Shown: positions 15,001 through 21,000 of the stretch, piece by piece
Layout of the letters: the number at the start of each line of letters is the position of its first letter
How positions within the stretch are numbered: the stretch's first letter is position 1
Assembly: GCA_036574205.1 (NCBI GenBank)
Contig: JAINCQ010000028.1
Span: 1-64,000 of the forward strand
Source: Elusimicrobiota bacterium
GTDB lineage: Bacteria > Elusimicrobiota > Elusimicrobia > Elusimicrobiales > UBA9959
Length of the DNA: 64,000 nt
Direction of reading: 5' to 3'
Program-made: the position numbers

Positions 15001-18000
15001 TTGGCTGAATTTAATAGTAATTATCCTATAAAAGCTATGCCAGTTGAATTTAATGGTGTGGTTTATTTTGCCGCTGGAAAATATGTATATGCAATAGATT
15101 TAGCTTCCTTTCAGTTGAAGGAAGGATGGCCTATTTATATAGGAAGTGAGATAAAAGCAAATTTTGTTCTTGATGCCTGGGAAGGTAATATAATGTTTTC
15201 TACCAATGATGGAAGAAGTCATATGATTGAGCTATGGGAGTAGTTATATGAAAAAGTTTTTTTTAATATTTTTTATTGTTTCAGCGCAAAATTTAAAAGC
15301 AGATTGGTCTTCTTTTATGGGTAATTATGAAAGAAATGCCTTTAAACCTGTTTCACTCAAAATCCCTTTTACTAAAGCTTATGATGATATTAAAGTGCCT
15401 GGATCTATATTATCATCTCCTGTTATTTATAATAAAAAGCTTGTTATTACAACAAGGTTTGGGTATATAATTGCTTTTGATATTGAAAATGGCAGGTGGC
15501 TGTGGGATTATTCAAGTTCAGGATTTATTGATGCTACTCCTTCTGTTGTATCTAATACAGTAGTTGTTCCTTCTATGGACGGCTATCTTTATGCGATTGA
15601 TTTAAATAGTAGTGGTAATGGCTTAATTAAATGGCAGACTGATCTTGGCGCCCCATCTGTTTCAAGCCCACTCATATACAAAAATAAAGTTTATGTTGGT
15701 GTGGGTGTACCTGAAAATTCACTTAAAATAGTAGATTTTTATGATGGTAAGGTTTTGAAAACTTTAAAATTTGAAAAACCAATAAACTCAGCAGTAGCTT
15801 TGTGCTCTGATAGAATTATCTTTGGTGGAAATGATGGAAGGATCTATTCAATAGATGAAAACGGAGGGGATTTAAAATATTATCCAACATCTGGCGGAAA
15901 TTTTAATATGAAGGCAATATCCTGTCATAACAGTAGATTATACGCTTTACCCGGTTATGATGAAAGGAGTCTTTATAAATTTGATACAAACTTAAACCTG
16001 ATTTTAAAAACAACTGATCTTACTCAAAATACAGGAAGTGATGTGTGGAACTGGCAACATACCTCATCTATTGCGCTTTCAACATATGCCGCTTATTTTG
16101 TCGTTGGTAATTCAGCTACATATTTATATGGTATAAATCAAGATTTTTCATCGGTGGTTTTTTCATCTTTTCCTATAGGAGTCATCTCAGATTATAACAT
16201 TGTAGCCTCACCTGCGCTTTCAAACGATTATATATTTCTTACAACAAATCTGGGAAAGTTTTATGTTATAGATTCAACTGGCGGAACTGTGTTATATGAC
16301 GATATCCTTTCTTCATCCTCTTACTCAGTTCCTGCAATATCTGATGGATATATTGCTGTTACTTCTGTTGATGGATCTATTGCAGTCTATAAAGCTTTAA
16401 GTTACATTGATTTTGATATAAGAGATGAGGAGATAATAACCTCAACATATCCTATTAAAATAAACGCGCTGAATCCTGATGCAACTTATTATATTCTTGA
16501 TTATTCATCTGATATGGAAAACTATAATTTTCTTATTTCAATTAACTTTGCAAAATCACAAGACGAATTAAAATCTTATATTATATACAACTGGGATACA
16601 ACACAAATTGAAAATGGAGTTTATTATTTAAGGATTCGCTATGGGGACCTGTATGCTATAAAAAGGATAAGGATAAATCAAAAACCATTACCCCCACAAA
16701 ATCTTGTGGTTTATGATAATCCCAACGATAATTGTAATAAATTGATACTTAACTGGCAAAGTGAAAAGGATTATACTTATAGGATATATAGAAAAAAATT
16801 AGATGAAAATAATTTTTCATTAATAACATCAACGACTGGAAAGTCATATATTGATAATACGGCTTTATGTGGAACCACTTTTACTTATGTGGTTAGTGCA
16901 TATGATGGATTTATGGAAAGTGATTACTCAAATTATGCTTGGGGTTTTTCAATAAATGACAATCCTTTAAATGATAATATAGCTCCTTCAAAGGTAAATG
17001 ATCTTTCAGCTTCAGAAGGATCTTGTGGAGGAAGTGTAGCATTGTTTTGGACTGAAAGTGGCGATGATGATGTGATAGGAAAAGCAAATAATTATGAAAT
17101 AGGATATAGTAGCTTTTTACCTTTTGTCTGGGAAGATTCTGTTATATCTACTGGACAGGTAAATGCTATGGCTGGTTCTATTGAAAATGCTATTGTGAGT
17201 AATTTATTTTATGGTGTTACATATTATTTTGCTGTAAAGGTATATGATTATGCTCAAAACTCAAGTGAGCTATCAAATCTGGCAACTAGTTTTGCAAAGA
17301 TAGATTTAACTCTGCCAGCGCCGCCAACTAATTTTGTAGTTTATGATGCAGATGGAGATAGAGGGGGAAAGCTTGTTCTTGAATGGGATCTTTCAGATGA
17401 TGATTTTAAAACTGGTTGTGATGAAAAGATATATGGCTATAAAATATTTAGATCTACTCTGCCGACATTCAATTATTCAGTTTATTATGCAACAGTAAAT
17501 CCAGGTGTTAATGGATACATAGATAAAAACGCAGTAGCAGGTATAAGATATTATTATAAGGTTTGTGCTTATGATTCCTCAAATTTATCTTGTTCTCAAA
17601 CAAAAGATGGTATTTCAGCTGATAATTACAGGTTTGTGAGTGTGGAATATGGTGGGCAGATTGTGGATTTAAGCGGGGGTAAGATTTTTATCCCACAAAA
17701 CTCATTAAACCAGAATGATTATCTTATCTTTTATAAATTATCAAAGGAAGATATCACCAGATTTTTAAATTTATCTTCTTTTAGAGCTTCTTCAAATTTA
17801 AATTTTAAACCAACTGAGATAGTATATAAACTTGAAAGCTCAAATCCTAACACAAAACTCCTTTCAAATGCCACAATTACCATTCCATACGTTTCAACTC
17901 AGATAGCTCACATAGTCGAGGATAATTTAAGGATGTATTATTATGATAATGGAAAATGGACTTTACTCAGGAATTCAAAACTGAATAAGGAGTTAAAATA

Positions 18001-21000
18001 TGTTGAAGCAAGTTTTGATAAATTTGGATATTATGGAGTTTTTGGTTATGAACCTCAAGGAAGCGTATTTGATGATGAATGGGTTTATGTATATCCAAAT
18101 CCAGCAAGGGGTGATAAGATAACATTTAAATTTGTGGTAAATTATAAATCAGATGTTGAAATAGAAATTTACAATGTTGCCGGGGAGATTATAGATAAGC
18201 TTGAGAGAAAAAACTGTGATGGGGGAATAATAACCGAGATTGACTGGAGCATAAAAAACATAGCAAGCGGTGTTTATGTTTATCTTTTTAAAGCAGATGG
18301 AGAAGGTGGAAAGAAAAAGGTTATAAAGAAATTTGCTGTGATAAAATGAGATAAAATTTTTTATGAGAAGGTTTTATGAGAAAACTTTTTAAAGCAGTAC
18401 TTATTTCTATATTGTTTTTCAGTCTATCATTTAATTATTTATCTGCTCAAAAAATATATCCTTCAGCTGGAACTCTTTCGGCTTATTTTTTAAAAATTCC
18501 ATTAGGACCAAGACCATCCTCAATGGCACAGGCATTTGCTTCAATTGATAAAGATCCATATTCTTTTTACTATAACCCTGCAGGTCAGCTATTGGATAAT
18601 AAAGTTTTAACGTTAGCGCATAACAGACATTTTGCTGATTTTAACCAGTTTTTTGTTGGTTATGGTGTTAAAGCTAATTTAGATTTTTTGCCGGGGAAAG
18701 ATAAATATTTATTTTTTTCATTAAATTATTTTTATACATCAAATCTTGAAGAAAGGAGTGGAGAATACGAGTCAGATCCTTTTAATCCAGGCCCTGTAGA
18801 AGGAAATTTTAAGGCTGGTGATATCTGCTTTTCTTTAAACTATGCTTTTTCGTATTCATCTAATTCATTATTTGGTGTGGGGTTAAAATATATAAATCAA
18901 AAAATATCTGATGAAAGTGGTTATAGCTTTGCTTTTGATATTGGAGTTATTAAAAAAACAAAAATATACGGGAAAGACATTAATCTTGGATTTTCAATTC
19001 TTAATATTGGTCCCGGCATAAAGTTTATTTCTAAAAGATACGATTTGCCTCTTACTTTTAGATTGGGAAGTTCATTATATTTAAATTCTCTTTTATTGAG
19101 TTTTGACATAACAAAATATATAGACAACTATCCATATTTTTCTTTGGGGTTTGAGAATAAAATAGGAAAATATCTTTTTATAAGAATTGGATACAGATAC
19201 AGGCTTTATGGAAATGAGCTGGGATTCTGGTCTGGTTTTTCAACAGGATTGGGTTTTGAATATAACAGGTTGATTTTTGATTATTCCCTAAATCCCTATG
19301 GTGATCTGGGATATTCTCATAAAATAGGCTTATCAATTAAATATTGATCTCTGGATTAATAAAAAATCTTTTATTTTGCTAAAATTTAATTATGCCAGAT
19401 AAAGCAGTCTTAATCCTTGCGGCAGGCCTTGGGACGAGGATGAAGTCTGATATTCCCAAGGTTTTACATACTTTTGACAACAAGCCACTTATAATCAGAC
19501 TCCTTGAAAAAATTGAAAAATTGAAAATTAAAAATATAATAATTGTTGTGGGATATAAGGCTGAGTTTGTTGTTGATGTCGTAAAAAAATGGAATGCTAA
19601 CAAAGGATTTAATATAGTATTTGTTTATCAGAAGCTTCTTAAAGGGAGTGGTCAGGCTGTAGTTGAATCAGCAAAAGAAATTAAAAAATTTGAGGATATT
19701 TTCATTATATCTGGAGATATCCCACTTATAAGCCTCAAGACGCTTAAAGGAATGCTTAGAAATTATGATAATAAAAAGATTGATGCTTTGATTTTAACCG
19801 CCACAGTTTCAGATACAAAAAGCTATGGCAGGATAATCAGGGATAACAATAAAAATGTGAAGGCTATTGTTGAGGCAGACGAATTAAAAGGTGATGAGAA
19901 ACTTATAAATGAAATAAATGGCGGGGTATATATATTTAAAACAAAAAAACTTTTAGAAGCTATTAGGGATTTAAAGCCTAAGGGATTAAAAAAAGAATAT
20001 TATTTGACAGATGCTATAGAAAATATTTATAAATCTGGTGGTAAGATTGATACCTTTATTATATCTGATGAGGATGAGATATCAGGTCCAAACTCAAAGA
20101 AAGAACTTAATGAACTTGAAAAAAGGTATTATATGAAAAATGCAATTAAACTTGGCGAAGAAGGTGTGAGCATAAAATCTCCAGAGTTTTCATATATATC
20201 TGAGACGGTTGAAATAGCCAGAGATACAATCATATATCCCGATACGCATATATATGGAAATTCAAAGATAGGTAAAAATTGTTCAATTGGACCATATGTA
20301 ATAATAGAGGATTCAATAATAAAGGATAACTGCACTATAAAGCCTTTTAGCTATATATCAAAAAGCGTAATCAGGGAAGGTTCTATAGTTGGTCCATTTT
20401 CGCATATAAGACCTGAATCTGATATAGGTCCTGATGCCAAGATAGGGAATTTTTCTGAGATAAAAAAATCTAAGATAGGTAAGGGTTCAAAGGTTCCTCA
20501 TTTAAGCTATATTGGCGATTGCGAGATGGGTGAAAAAGTCAATATAGGGGCGGGGACTATTACCTGTAATTATGATGGAGTTAAAAAACATAAAACGACT
20601 ATTAACTCTGGAGCTTTTATAGGCTCAAATACTAATCTTGTTGCTCCAGTAAGGATAGGGAAAAATGCTTTAATTGGAGCTGGCTCTACCATAACGATCG
20701 ATATCCCTGACAATAAACTTGCGATAGCGCGATCCAGAGAAGTTATAAAAGAAAAAAAGAGGAAGGTATGAGAAAATACTGGGAACAAGGAGAATTAAAA
20801 TTATTTTGTGGCAATTCAAATCCTTCACTTGCCATTAAAATATCGGAACTTATTGGCATACCGCTTGGCAAGATTAAAGTTTCAAGGTTTGCTGATGGTG
20901 AGATAGAGGTAAGGATACTTGAGAATGTTCGTGGAGCTGATTGTTATGTACTTCAGTCAACATCTCGTCCTGTAAATGAAAATTTGATGGAACTTTTGAT

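Follow-up and report, generated by a model that had tools for sequence, protein, structure and literature searches.

The window, by which we mean the whole stretch of 64,000 nucleotides analysed, raises the question of whether a bacterium outside the Bacteroidota exports large surface proteins by a route like the type IX secretion system (T9SS), with each cargo having its own outer membrane carrier. The genome (1.85 Mb in 43 contigs, 95% complete) comes from a lineage closest to MAGs that bear the names Elusimicrobia or Elusimicrobiales. T9SS-type parts had been reported from it in a survey and they are real, comprising type A C-terminal sorting domains (CTDs), barrels of the PorV/PorQ family and a homologue of SprA.

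Three adjacent genes for surface proteins

The features that concern us all lie on the forward strand:

1..15243, + strand: giant adhesin-like gene, at least 5,080 amino acids, with its 5' end beyond the contig start
15248..18349, + strand: cargo gene, 1,033 amino acids, with signal peptide, PQQ/BamB-like beta-propeller, Fn3-like modules and type A CTD
15389..16168, + strand: beta-propeller region of the cargo, residues 48-307, Beta-prop_ACSF4 107.9 bits
18089..18331, + strand: type A T9SS C-terminal sorting domain of the cargo, TIGR04183
18376..19347, + strand: PorV/PorQ-family outer membrane barrel gene, 323 amino acids, with signal peptide, about 14 strands and aromatic C-terminus

The cargo has a signal-like segment at its N-terminus, a propeller scoring 60.7 bits in the PQQ_2 profile search, above the cut-off of that profile, and a weak fn3 match. 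Its extreme C-terminus (residues 948-1028 of 1,033) matches TIGR04183 with 39.1-39.5 bits against a cut-off of 23, and the C-terminus also matches Por_Secre_tail (PF18962) with 37.2 bits against a cut-off of 27. With both curated cut-offs passed at a C-terminal position, the cargo ends in a type A sorting domain of the T9SS. This domain contains the motifs PNP, SGVY and, at its end, K-x-x-I-x-K, which are also visible across nine aligned CTDs of the genome. A lysine close to the C-terminus is nearly invariant in an alignment of 27 CTDs; the available text of PMC10994853 describes it as almost invariant in type A CTDs.

The giant contains repeated Ig/Fn3-like modules, two lamin-tail domains (LTD, 70.5 bits), fn3 matches and a C-terminal PQQ-type propeller (Beta-prop_ACSF4, 107 bits). 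This last domain resembles the propeller of the cargo, with phmmer cross-matches among relatives at E-values from 1e-14 to 1e-27. A T9SS CTD is absent from the giant and its orthologues when searched with a purpose-built HMM. Only 4 nt separate the giant from the cargo and 26 nt the cargo from the barrel, and the three-gene set recurs in all 11 related loci of the family. Orthologues of the cargo, 1,026-1,180 amino acids long, end in a CTD in all 11; an orthologous giant lies upstream in ten, the remaining locus ending at a contig edge.

The 323-residue barrel scores 125.4 bits with NF033709 (PorV_fam; subfamily cut-off 90) and stays below the equivalog cut-offs for PorQ (NF033711, 68.4 versus 220) and PorV (NF033710, 39.1 versus 250); it is a member of the PorV/PorQ family that these equivalog models assign neither to PorV proper nor to PorQ proper. 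No Pfam family, PorP_SprF included, matches it at E<=0.01. NCBI records of MAGs label its orthologues "PorV/PorQ family protein", and its closest relatives outside Elusimicrobia bear the name PorQ. It has a single cysteine and ends at the barrel, without a twin-cysteine periplasmic tail. In its AlphaFold2 model (pLDDT 92.5, pTM 0.85) the protein is predicted to have a 14-strand FadL-like fold closest to solved PorV: the first two Foldseek matches in the PDB are the Flavobacterium johnsoniae PorV chains 8gl6_F and 6h3i_F (E-values 5e-14 and 2.5e-12, TMq 0.72 and 0.71), with the FadL family next, about seven orders of E-value behind (E-value about 3e-7, TMq about 0.55).

What the three parts are, and that their pairing is conserved, is thus firm. 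That they make up a surface-protein module, with a giant, a CTD-bearing cargo and a barrel dedicated to that cargo, is a reading to which, taken whole and with the export path proposed below, we give an even chance.

Pairing of cargo and barrel in the genome and the phylum

In the whole genome, TIGR04183 gives ten matches at E<=0.1, six of them above the cut-off, and a genome search places these six where they had been listed before. NF033709 gives 11 matches, five above the cut-off. The survey's finding of ten PorV-like paralogues is close to the 11 open reading frames that a purpose-built HMM retrieves, two of them weak, but its statement that all of them fall under curated cut-offs does not hold, as five, that of the window included, pass NF033709. 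The E-values and the conservation in relatives exclude a chance origin of the matches. There are six pairs of a cargo gene followed by a PorV-like gene, each pair on one strand with the cargo upstream. The claim that every giant cargo brings its own PorV goes too far: three of nine CTD proteins, among them the one of 5,341 amino acids, have no adjacent PorV-like gene, which means that carriers are in part shared or encoded elsewhere, and the giant of the window has no CTD.

The pairing itself holds in the genome and across the phylum. For 40 genomes of the phylum we picked the top-scoring PorV gene and were able to judge its surroundings in 39. Its immediate upstream neighbour, in the same orientation, is a CTD gene in 25/39; in 4/39 one or two small open reading frames intervene and the CTD gene is no more than 700 nt away; it is directly downstream in two and three genes upstream in one, and no CTD gene was found near PorV in the remaining seven. 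Measured against TIGR04183, 26 of 33 C-termini from this sample reach the cut-off, two are slightly under it and five give no match. In 35 pairs, the distances among CTDs and those among PorV-like proteins vary together (Mantel r 0.65; none of 2,000 permutations is as high), and the partner of the nearest PorV is among the three nearest CTDs in 21 of the 35, against about three by chance. As judged from these sequence distances, the co-variation shows that the two genes are inherited as units; it says nothing on binding.

PorV_fam also matches in the Bacteroides thetaiotaomicron control. This species is not known to have a T9SS; membership of the family alone is therefore no proof of type IX transport.

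A shortened SprA homologue and the components not found

An open reading frame of 1,760 amino acids on another contig (C29) matches TIGR04189 with 126.9 bits (E-value 4.5e-37), under the equivalog cut-off of 200. A profile of 21 of its relatives has F. johnsoniae SprA as its sole PDB match (E-value 2e-21), and hhalign aligns it to four Ignavibacteriota SprA proteins over 1,093 columns with a probability of 100% and an E-value of 1e-41, leaving the final 460 or so residues unaligned. The earlier caution that the match is below the curated cut-off stands. From these comparisons the protein is nevertheless a true SprA homologue, under the equivalog cut-off and shortened by about 540 residues relative to the 2,300-2,400 or so of SprA.

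One copy of the gene is present in 260 of 301 genomes and in 222 of 234 good ones, which adds to the case for homology, and the best 120 relatives share 50-77% identity over the first 777 residues. Among 20 genomes listed as lacking it, 12 also lack PorV, all of them small genomes of one family (f14); such joint loss in reduced genomes is to be expected of any envelope function. The position beside lptF/lptG noted in the survey is confirmed as a head-to-head arrangement, and it recurs in 6 of 20 loci, for which the flanks fetched were short. The genome encodes its own LptD-like protein (C34:66487-68523, 678 amino acids, E-value 5e-41 to relatives passing PF04453), so the role of inserting LPS is already taken. 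One genus (g12) retains the SprA-like gene (61/62 genomes) and one weak PorV-like gene (62/62), with no TIGR04183 match in 22 genomes and no type B CTD in 15; the SprA-like protein may therefore serve another or a further task.

The reported absence of GldKLMN and PorU is borne out by profile searches of the genome. GldK (TIGR03525), GldM and GldN give no match at E<=1, GldM_1st gives none, and GldL reaches 12 bits, which is chance level; the GldN model is silent in the controls too. An FGE-sulfatase domain was found nowhere in the genome, while three controls are positive. For the PorU sortase (NF033707) only the CTD part is matched (model positions 953-1088, at most 30.6 bits). Neither the type B CTD (TIGR04131) nor the PorP/SprF carrier (TIGR03519, silent in controls) has a match in the genome. 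The GldL and GldM models had been described as silent in every control, but both match in a Bacteroidia genome (247 and 209 bits), as does GldM_1st. GldL and GldM match in none of five Ignavibacteriota genomes and GldM_1st in none of three, while full-length SprA is above its cut-off in all five; strongly divergent forms could therefore escape these models. The known motor, hub and sortase of the T9SS were thus not found, and a complete set of the Bacteroidota type was not encountered. Cargo-PorV pairing together with a shortened SprA relative, the known motor not being found, is seen phylum-wide.

A possible export path, its rivals and its relatives

A T9SS-like route lacking motor and sortase, with every cargo remaining attached to a carrier that is dedicated to it and anchors it at the surface, is in our judgement as probable as all else together. 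The cargo would cross the inner membrane via Sec, and its CTD would be taken up by the surface loops of the PorV-like protein paired with it, this carrier being docked at the one SprA-like giant barrel; carrier and cargo would then leave the pore sideways. As a PorU-type sortase was not found, the tail would not be removed, and the cargo would be held non-covalently by its barrel. The giant, which has no such tail, may reach or hold on to the surface via the related propeller of the cargo.

The pair might instead be an anchor or export unit sufficient in itself, in which BAM inserts the barrel and the barrel then binds or threads its neighbour's CTD in the manner of two-partner systems or autotransporters, and the SprA-like protein serves an unrelated, near-essential task in the outer membrane. 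The genus with a SprA-like gene and no detected CTD cargo, the neighbouring lptF/lptG, a degree of conservation that fits a housekeeping role and the PorV_fam match in B. thetaiotaomicron all speak for this. However, folded proteins of about 1,000 residues are not known to pass through 14-strand FadL-like barrels such as those of FadL and PorV. The SprA-like protein is moreover homologous to the only pore known to act together with PorV and CTDs, the genome has its LptD-like protein for LPS insertion, and SprA-like and PorV genes are lost together in reduced genomes; we consider this alternative unlikely, at perhaps one chance in several. Somewhat less likely still is that a MotAB/FliF-FliG operon, present without a flagellum, replaces the energy chain. 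A PorV with a periplasmic TPR tail would tie this machine to the outer membrane, and the machine would pull PorV-type carriers off the SprA-like pore or along the surface. In the Bacteroidota one energy chain powers the extraction of carriers as well as the movement of adhesins (PMC10994853 and PMC12635249, in their available parts). The operon (contig C32) encodes the PorV-TPR protein, a membrane-anchored FliG_M/FliG_C and TPR protein, a coiled-coil protein, MotA, MotB (OmpA) and a lipoprotein, and FlhA was not found in the genome, the control being positive in five genomes. The non-membrane part of the FliG-like protein is above the YscJ_FliF_C cut-off in two of three tested. The MotAB-FliG link proposed in the survey is stronger than was seen there: PorV-TPR directly precedes the FliG-like gene in 19/20 genomes, and in 15/20 PorV-TPR is itself immediately preceded by a CTD gene. 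Against the link, the FliG-like gene was found in 109/301 genomes and is nearly absent from two families (f2, 1/88; f14, 1/89) that retain SprA-like and PorV genes, as the survey had seen for the SprA-like gene in a family without FliG. In the window's own genus (L054, L055) PorV-TPR has no CTD gene before it. With a CTD protein and a PorV of its own, the operon may also encode an independent machine for which the export route is no more than a tool. Hardly credible, finally, is that the barrel is a plain channel of the FadL type that passes small hydrophobic molecules, with the CTD gene adjacent to it without functional meaning. After PorV, the closest folds are those of FadL, TodX and TbuX, and the PorV-TPR paralogue has a weak Toluene_X match in Pfam, but the solved PorV chains fit far better, the barrel passes NF033709, and the pairing, with its co-variation, is kept in most sampled genomes and all orthologous loci.

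The preferred reading, a motor-less route with dedicated carriers, has parallels in known systems. In the attachment complex of Porphyromonas gingivalis, the CTD proteins of the PorU-PorV and PorZ-PorQ pairs keep their tail on the barrel, and porU precedes porV, that is, CTD protein then barrel. The likeness extends to a tailed CTD protein on a PorV/PorQ-family barrel and to the gene order, and several CTDs here match the C-terminal part of the PorZ model best (48.9-73.1 bits). The partners differ, being adhesin- or propeller-type passengers and not a sortase or an LPS-delivery protein, and the pairs are put at dozens per member of the phylum, with six in this genome, against two in P. gingivalis.

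With the Bacteroidota T9SS (F. johnsoniae SprA-PorV, 6H3I and 8GL6; PMC10994853, available text) the system shares type A CTD motifs with the C-terminal lysine, a 14-strand PorV-family barrel nearest in fold to solved PorV, and a giant outer membrane protein whose homology to SprA spans about 1,100 columns. It differs in its many PorV paralogues, each beside its cargo, where in Bacteroidota a single general PorV serves every type A cargo, in its SprA-like protein of 1,760 residues, in that GldL, GldM, GldK, GldN and PorU were not found, and in its organism, which is not a member of the Bacteroidota. Type B substrates, such as SprB with SprF, likewise have one adjacent carrier gene per cargo, and the cargo is expected here too to remain on the carrier as a surface anchor (PMC12635249, as far as its available text goes); dedicated carriers to which the cargo remains bound are their rule in the accessible sections of PMC12635249 and PMC10994853. 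Here, in contrast, the sorting domain is of type A, with TIGR04131 not found in the genome, and the carrier is of the PorV/PorQ family and not PorP/SprF, with neither a twin-cysteine periplasmic tail nor a GldK to link to. On the preferred reading, a type A CTD sequence would here follow the logic known from type B substrates, or that of the pairs PorU-PorV and PorZ-PorQ.

Melioribacter and Ignavibacterium have been described, in the part of PMC11705866 available, as having a SprA-PorV-Plug set without other T9SS proteins, and our Ignavibacteriota searches agree. These are members of the FCB group whose SprA is full-length and above the equivalog cut-off, unlike the shortened SprA of another phylum described here. 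Of the pared-down type IX-like route put forward in the survey, the parts stand, as does the failure to find GldKLMN and PorU, while the novelty of the pared-down state does not, as it is already in print in what is available of that paper. What is new is the phylum, and the pairing of cargo with PorV.

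Cargo and barrel genes in the window

The window, positions 1-64000 of contig C19 in a genome of 1.85 Mb (43 contigs, 95% complete), opens with three closely packed genes on the plus strand, separated by spacers of 4 and 26 nucleotides.

Genes at the start of the window
1-15243, + strand: giant ORF, 5,080 aa or more, its 5' part lost at the contig start
15248-18349, + strand: cargo, 1,033 aa
18376-19347, + strand: PorV/PorQ-family barrel, 323 aa

The giant contains Fn3/Ig-like repeats, lamin-tail domains and a PQQ-type propeller at its C-terminus; the domain scan found no sorting domain in it. 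The cargo begins with a signal-like segment, contains a PQQ/BamB-like propeller (PQQ_2, 60.7 bits) and ends in a type A C-terminal sorting domain (CTD) of the type IX secretion system (T9SS), matching PF18962 with 37.2 bits (cut-off 27) and TIGR04183 with 39.1 bits (cut-off 23). A single gene broken by a frameshift into giant and cargo was considered and rejected, as the cargo has its own signal peptide and relatives likewise carry two separate genes. The propellers at the giant C-terminus (1-15243) and the cargo N-terminus (15248-16168) are related, with phmmer cross-matches in relatives at E 1e-14 to 1e-27; because of this kinship, the tail-less giant might be held by the tailed cargo.

Promoter and terminator scans gave counts that did not differ from those of shuffled sequence. 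Downstream of the barrel gene lie glmU, prs and a secreted C11 peptidase, and the remainder of the window holds housekeeping genes. Two secreted clostripain-family (C11) cysteine peptidases are encoded in the window, at 21828-25364 (146.7 bits) and 62187-63665 (150.1 bits). The former, three genes past the PorV gene, has 1,178 aa with a long C-terminal part to which no domain is assigned. C11 and the PorU/gingipain family are members of one peptidase clan. A gene for a CsgG-like lipoprotein (52 bits) is present at 32818-33426 (-); no curli genes were seen in its vicinity.

The barrel scores 125.4 bits against the PorV_fam subfamily model NF033709 (cut-off 90) and stays below the cut-offs of the PorV and PorQ equivalog models; 'PorV/PorQ family protein' is the name already given to such proteins in NCBI records of metagenome-assembled genomes (MAGs). 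An AlphaFold2 model calculated from an alignment of 36 sequences (pLDDT 92.5, pTM 0.85) has the solved PorV chains of F. johnsoniae as its nearest structures (8gl6_F, E 5e-14, TMq 0.72; 6h3i_F, E 2.5e-12, TMq 0.71).

Pairing of sorting domains and PorV-like barrels

In the whole genome, TIGR04183 gives ten matches at E<=0.1, six of them over the cut-off, at the same places as listed in the survey's finding. NF033709 gives 11 matches, five over the cut-off, and with an HMM built from the six barrels of the pairs 11 ORFs are detected, two only weakly. A PorV-like gene directly follows, on the same strand, each of six genes for large proteins (1,040-2,381 aa by ORF). Nine C-termini can be aligned, sharing PNP, SGVY and K-x-x-I-x-K/R motifs; three of these nine CTD proteins (5,341, 196 and 522 aa) have no PorV neighbour, and five PorV-like genes stand without an adjacent CTD gene.

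Orthologues of the barrel, 44-53% identical, occur in 14 of the 25 other genomes of the family. The order of a CTD-bearing cargo (1,026-1,180 aa) and then the barrel is kept in all 11 family loci fetched, with the giant upstream in ten; the 11th is interrupted by a contig end. For the phylum, 40 genomes (the first distinct ones tabulated) contributed their best, first-listed PorV_fam match, a sample biased towards high-scoring PorV genes; one lies at a contig end, leaving 39 assessable loci.

Where the CTD gene lies with respect to PorV in 39 loci of the phylum
25/39: directly upstream, same strand
4/39: less than 700 nt upstream, with one or two small ORFs between
2/39: directly downstream
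1/39: three genes upstream
7/39: no CTD gene near PorV

The small intervening ORFs, one or two per locus, encode 105-127 aa (L017:4912-5569, L039:3513-3872, L041:4985-5368 and L045:4917-5237). Among 33 sampled C-termini, 26 reach the TIGR04183 cut-off and two are slightly below; the other five have no TIGR04183 match and are hit by the CTD part of the PorZ or the PorU model. Over 35 pairs, the distances between CTDs co-vary with those between barrels (Mantel r 0.65; none of 2,000 permutations as high), and the partner of the nearest barrel is within the three nearest CTDs in 21 of the 35, against about three by chance. This co-variation shows that cargo-barrel pairs are inherited and diversify as units, which does not in itself prove contact between the two proteins.

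Both components are widespread. In the phylum sample, 268 of 301 genomes have a PorV_fam match (226 of the 234 good ones), a single genome having as many as 61 first-look candidates. For TIGR04183 the figures are 85 of 121 good genomes, 51 of 54 genera and a maximum of 43 scored matches in one genome. Genes for proteins of 187 and about 415 aa located 3' of unpaired PorV genes in one family (f14) were set aside as unrelated to secretion, their sequences being, by eye, nucleotide kinase- and flavoprotein-like. Some PorV barrels are fused to periplasmic tails of CarboxypepD_reg plus OmpA, OmpA or TPR type (L023:3302-4897, L015:3917-5566, L041:2978-4930); the T9SS accessory protein PorE, in the accessible text of PMC12204202, has the same kinds of domain.

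The SprA-like protein and other type IX components

The candidate for the pore is encoded on another contig.

C29:6167-11449: SprA-like gene, 1,760 aa, with a C-terminal aromatic beta-signal

The SprA/Sov model TIGR04189 matches this protein with E 4.5e-37 and 126.9 bits, below the 200-bit cut-off. When a profile of 21 relatives is compared with the PDB, F. johnsoniae SprA is the sole match (E 2e-21), and profile-profile alignment with four full-length Ignavibacteriota SprA sequences gives a probability of 100% and E 1e-41 over 1,093 columns (query 146-1296, template 267-1627). A protein-atlas look-up shows SprA_N in a minority of members in 25 of the 30 nearest clusters (12-20% in two listed). 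No Pfam family matches at E<=0.001, PF14349 reaches 16.6 bits, below its cut-off, and a phmmer search of PDB sequences with the first 777 aa returned nothing relevant. The gene is a single-copy core gene of the phylum, present in 260 of 301 genomes, 222 of the 234 good ones and 92 of 98 genera; all relatives among the matches listed, from Elusimicrobia MAG records, are named 'hypothetical protein'.

As the survey had noted, the gene lies beside lptFG: it is head-to-head with lptF/lptG, an arrangement also found in six of 20 relatives, where short flanks allow it to be seen. The idea that the protein stands in for a missing LptD was rejected, since the genome holds its own LptD-like ORF, by which that role is already filled. 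PF04453 (LptD) gives weak matches in nine of 121 genomes of the phylum and none in the three of the genus, so the LptD of the phylum must be very divergent. An HMM of those weak phylum matches identifies the 678-aa ORF at C34:66487-68523 (-), which escapes PF04453, with E 5e-41.

Other T9SS parts were looked for in the same genome. GldK, GldM and GldN have no match at E<=1, GldL reaches 12 bits only, and GldM_1st, PorP/SprF and type B CTDs (TIGR04131) have no match; the PorU model matches through its CTD part only. The FGE-sulfatase domain, which provides the fold of both GldK and GldJ, is found nowhere in the genome, and its model does match in its controls. The survey's finding had called the absence of GldL and GldM weakly tested, their models having been silent in control genomes. 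The 14 standing controls include no T9SS organism; in a Bacteroidia genome added via a PorQ relative, neighbouring genes match GldL (247 bits), GldM (209 bits) and GldM_1st (66 bits). Five Ignavibacteriota genomes (G309-G313, reached via L105, L110, L128, L114 and L163) contain a full-length SprA over the cut-off (762-1,009 bits) and PorQ, with GldL and GldM in none of the five and GldM_1st in none of three. As the models are silent beside a full-length SprA there, they might miss very divergent motors. The Ignavibacteriota results agree with the accessible text of PMC11705866, which gives Melioribacter and Ignavibacterium PorV, SprA and Plug and no other T9SS protein; a translocon-only state is thus already published for two FCB genera. 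In literature searches for a T9SS in Elusimicrobia, we found no papers on type IX parts in this group.

A MotAB/FliG-like operon and a proposed route of export

One PorV-like barrel belongs to an operon with ion-motor components.

C32:36166-44971 (-) (L005:4167-12972): operon of a PorV barrel with a TPR tail (PorV-TPR, 546 aa), FliG_M/FliG_C plus TPR (635 aa), coiled coil (923 aa), MotA, MotB (OmpA) and a lipoprotein

The FliG-like protein starts with a signal or anchor segment; some 185 residues located outside the membrane follow, then a single membrane helix and the FliG domains. Its outer part exceeds the YscJ_FliF_C cut-off in two of three relatives. The operon is flagellum-free; FlhA was not found in the genome. 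In stretches around FliG-like orthologues from 20 genomes, PorV-TPR lies directly upstream of the FliG-like gene in 19, and a CTD gene directly upstream of PorV-TPR in 15, its product either large (about 1,240-1,630 aa) or CTD-only (122-177 aa). MotA and MotB are seen in nine of the 20, and most stretches without them stop before that point. The 122-177-aa proteins, found in this position in ten of the 20 genomes (e.g., L062:10468-10857, L064:4891-5289), are hardly more than a signal peptide and a FlgD_ig-like CTD and resemble a tail without a passenger. Besides the operon copy, many Elusimicrobiota genomes encode several FliG-like paralogues (about 480-600 aa, 22-34% identical to it); some of these matches contain in-frame stops. 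The accessible text of a survey of MotAB homologues (PMC12505986) reports no Elusimicrobia.

In the published T9SS model, as far as set out in the accessible text of PMC10994853 and PMC12635249, SprA has a lateral opening at which PorV docks, the CTD binds PorV loops and the pore wall, and energy is needed to draw PorV and cargo off SprA; type B cargos have their own carriers and remain on them. Export here may follow these steps, altered in two respects: the carrier would be private to each cargo, and the tail should stay on the cargo, because no sortase was found, leaving the barrel as the cargo's anchor. This reading fits the gene anatomy here, and we give it about an even chance of being correct. 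The main doubt comes from one genus (g12), in which the SprA-like gene is kept in 61 of 62 genomes, with one weak PorV-like gene, and no CTD is detectable (type A in none of 22 genomes, type B in none of 15).

That the cargo-barrel pair works without the SprA-like protein is unlikely in our judgement. FadL-family channels do follow the PorV chains among the structural neighbours of the barrel model (E about 3e-7, TMq about 0.55), and a plain FadL-type channel is a highly improbable identity for the barrel. Export powered by the MotAB/FliF-FliG machine is slightly less probable than a pair independent of the SprA-like protein. The FliG-like gene is present in 109 of 301 genomes; however, it is nearly missing from families f2 (one of 88) and f14 (one of 89), both of which keep the SprA-like gene and PorV, as the survey had anticipated, and this argues against a general export motor. 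Spelled out, the motor reading would be an ancestral or alternative type IX-like system in Elusimicrobiota, in which the PorV of each type A cargo pulls it out of a shortened SprA pore and then keeps it bound. GldLM-GldKN would be replaced as the source of force by a flagellum-free rotary machine, MotAB/FliF-FliG, with PorV-TPR as its link to the outer membrane; we consider it equally doubtful in this form. If true, this would add a second, independent solution to the problem of driving protein release at the outer membrane by inner-membrane ion flow.

The T9SS is regarded as a Bacteroidota machine, and its open question is how motor energy draws carrier and cargo off the pore. The Elusimicrobiota retain the sorting tail, a homologue of the pore and carriers by the dozen, while the known motor, hub and sortase were not found in the genome studied here. 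Such a natural minimal version asks what transport truly needs, how CTD and PorV loops encode carrier specificity, and whether another ion-driven machine can replace the motor. It also offers an annotation rule for giant 'hypothetical' surface proteins of uncultured bacteria, which is to check for the tail and a neighbouring barrel.
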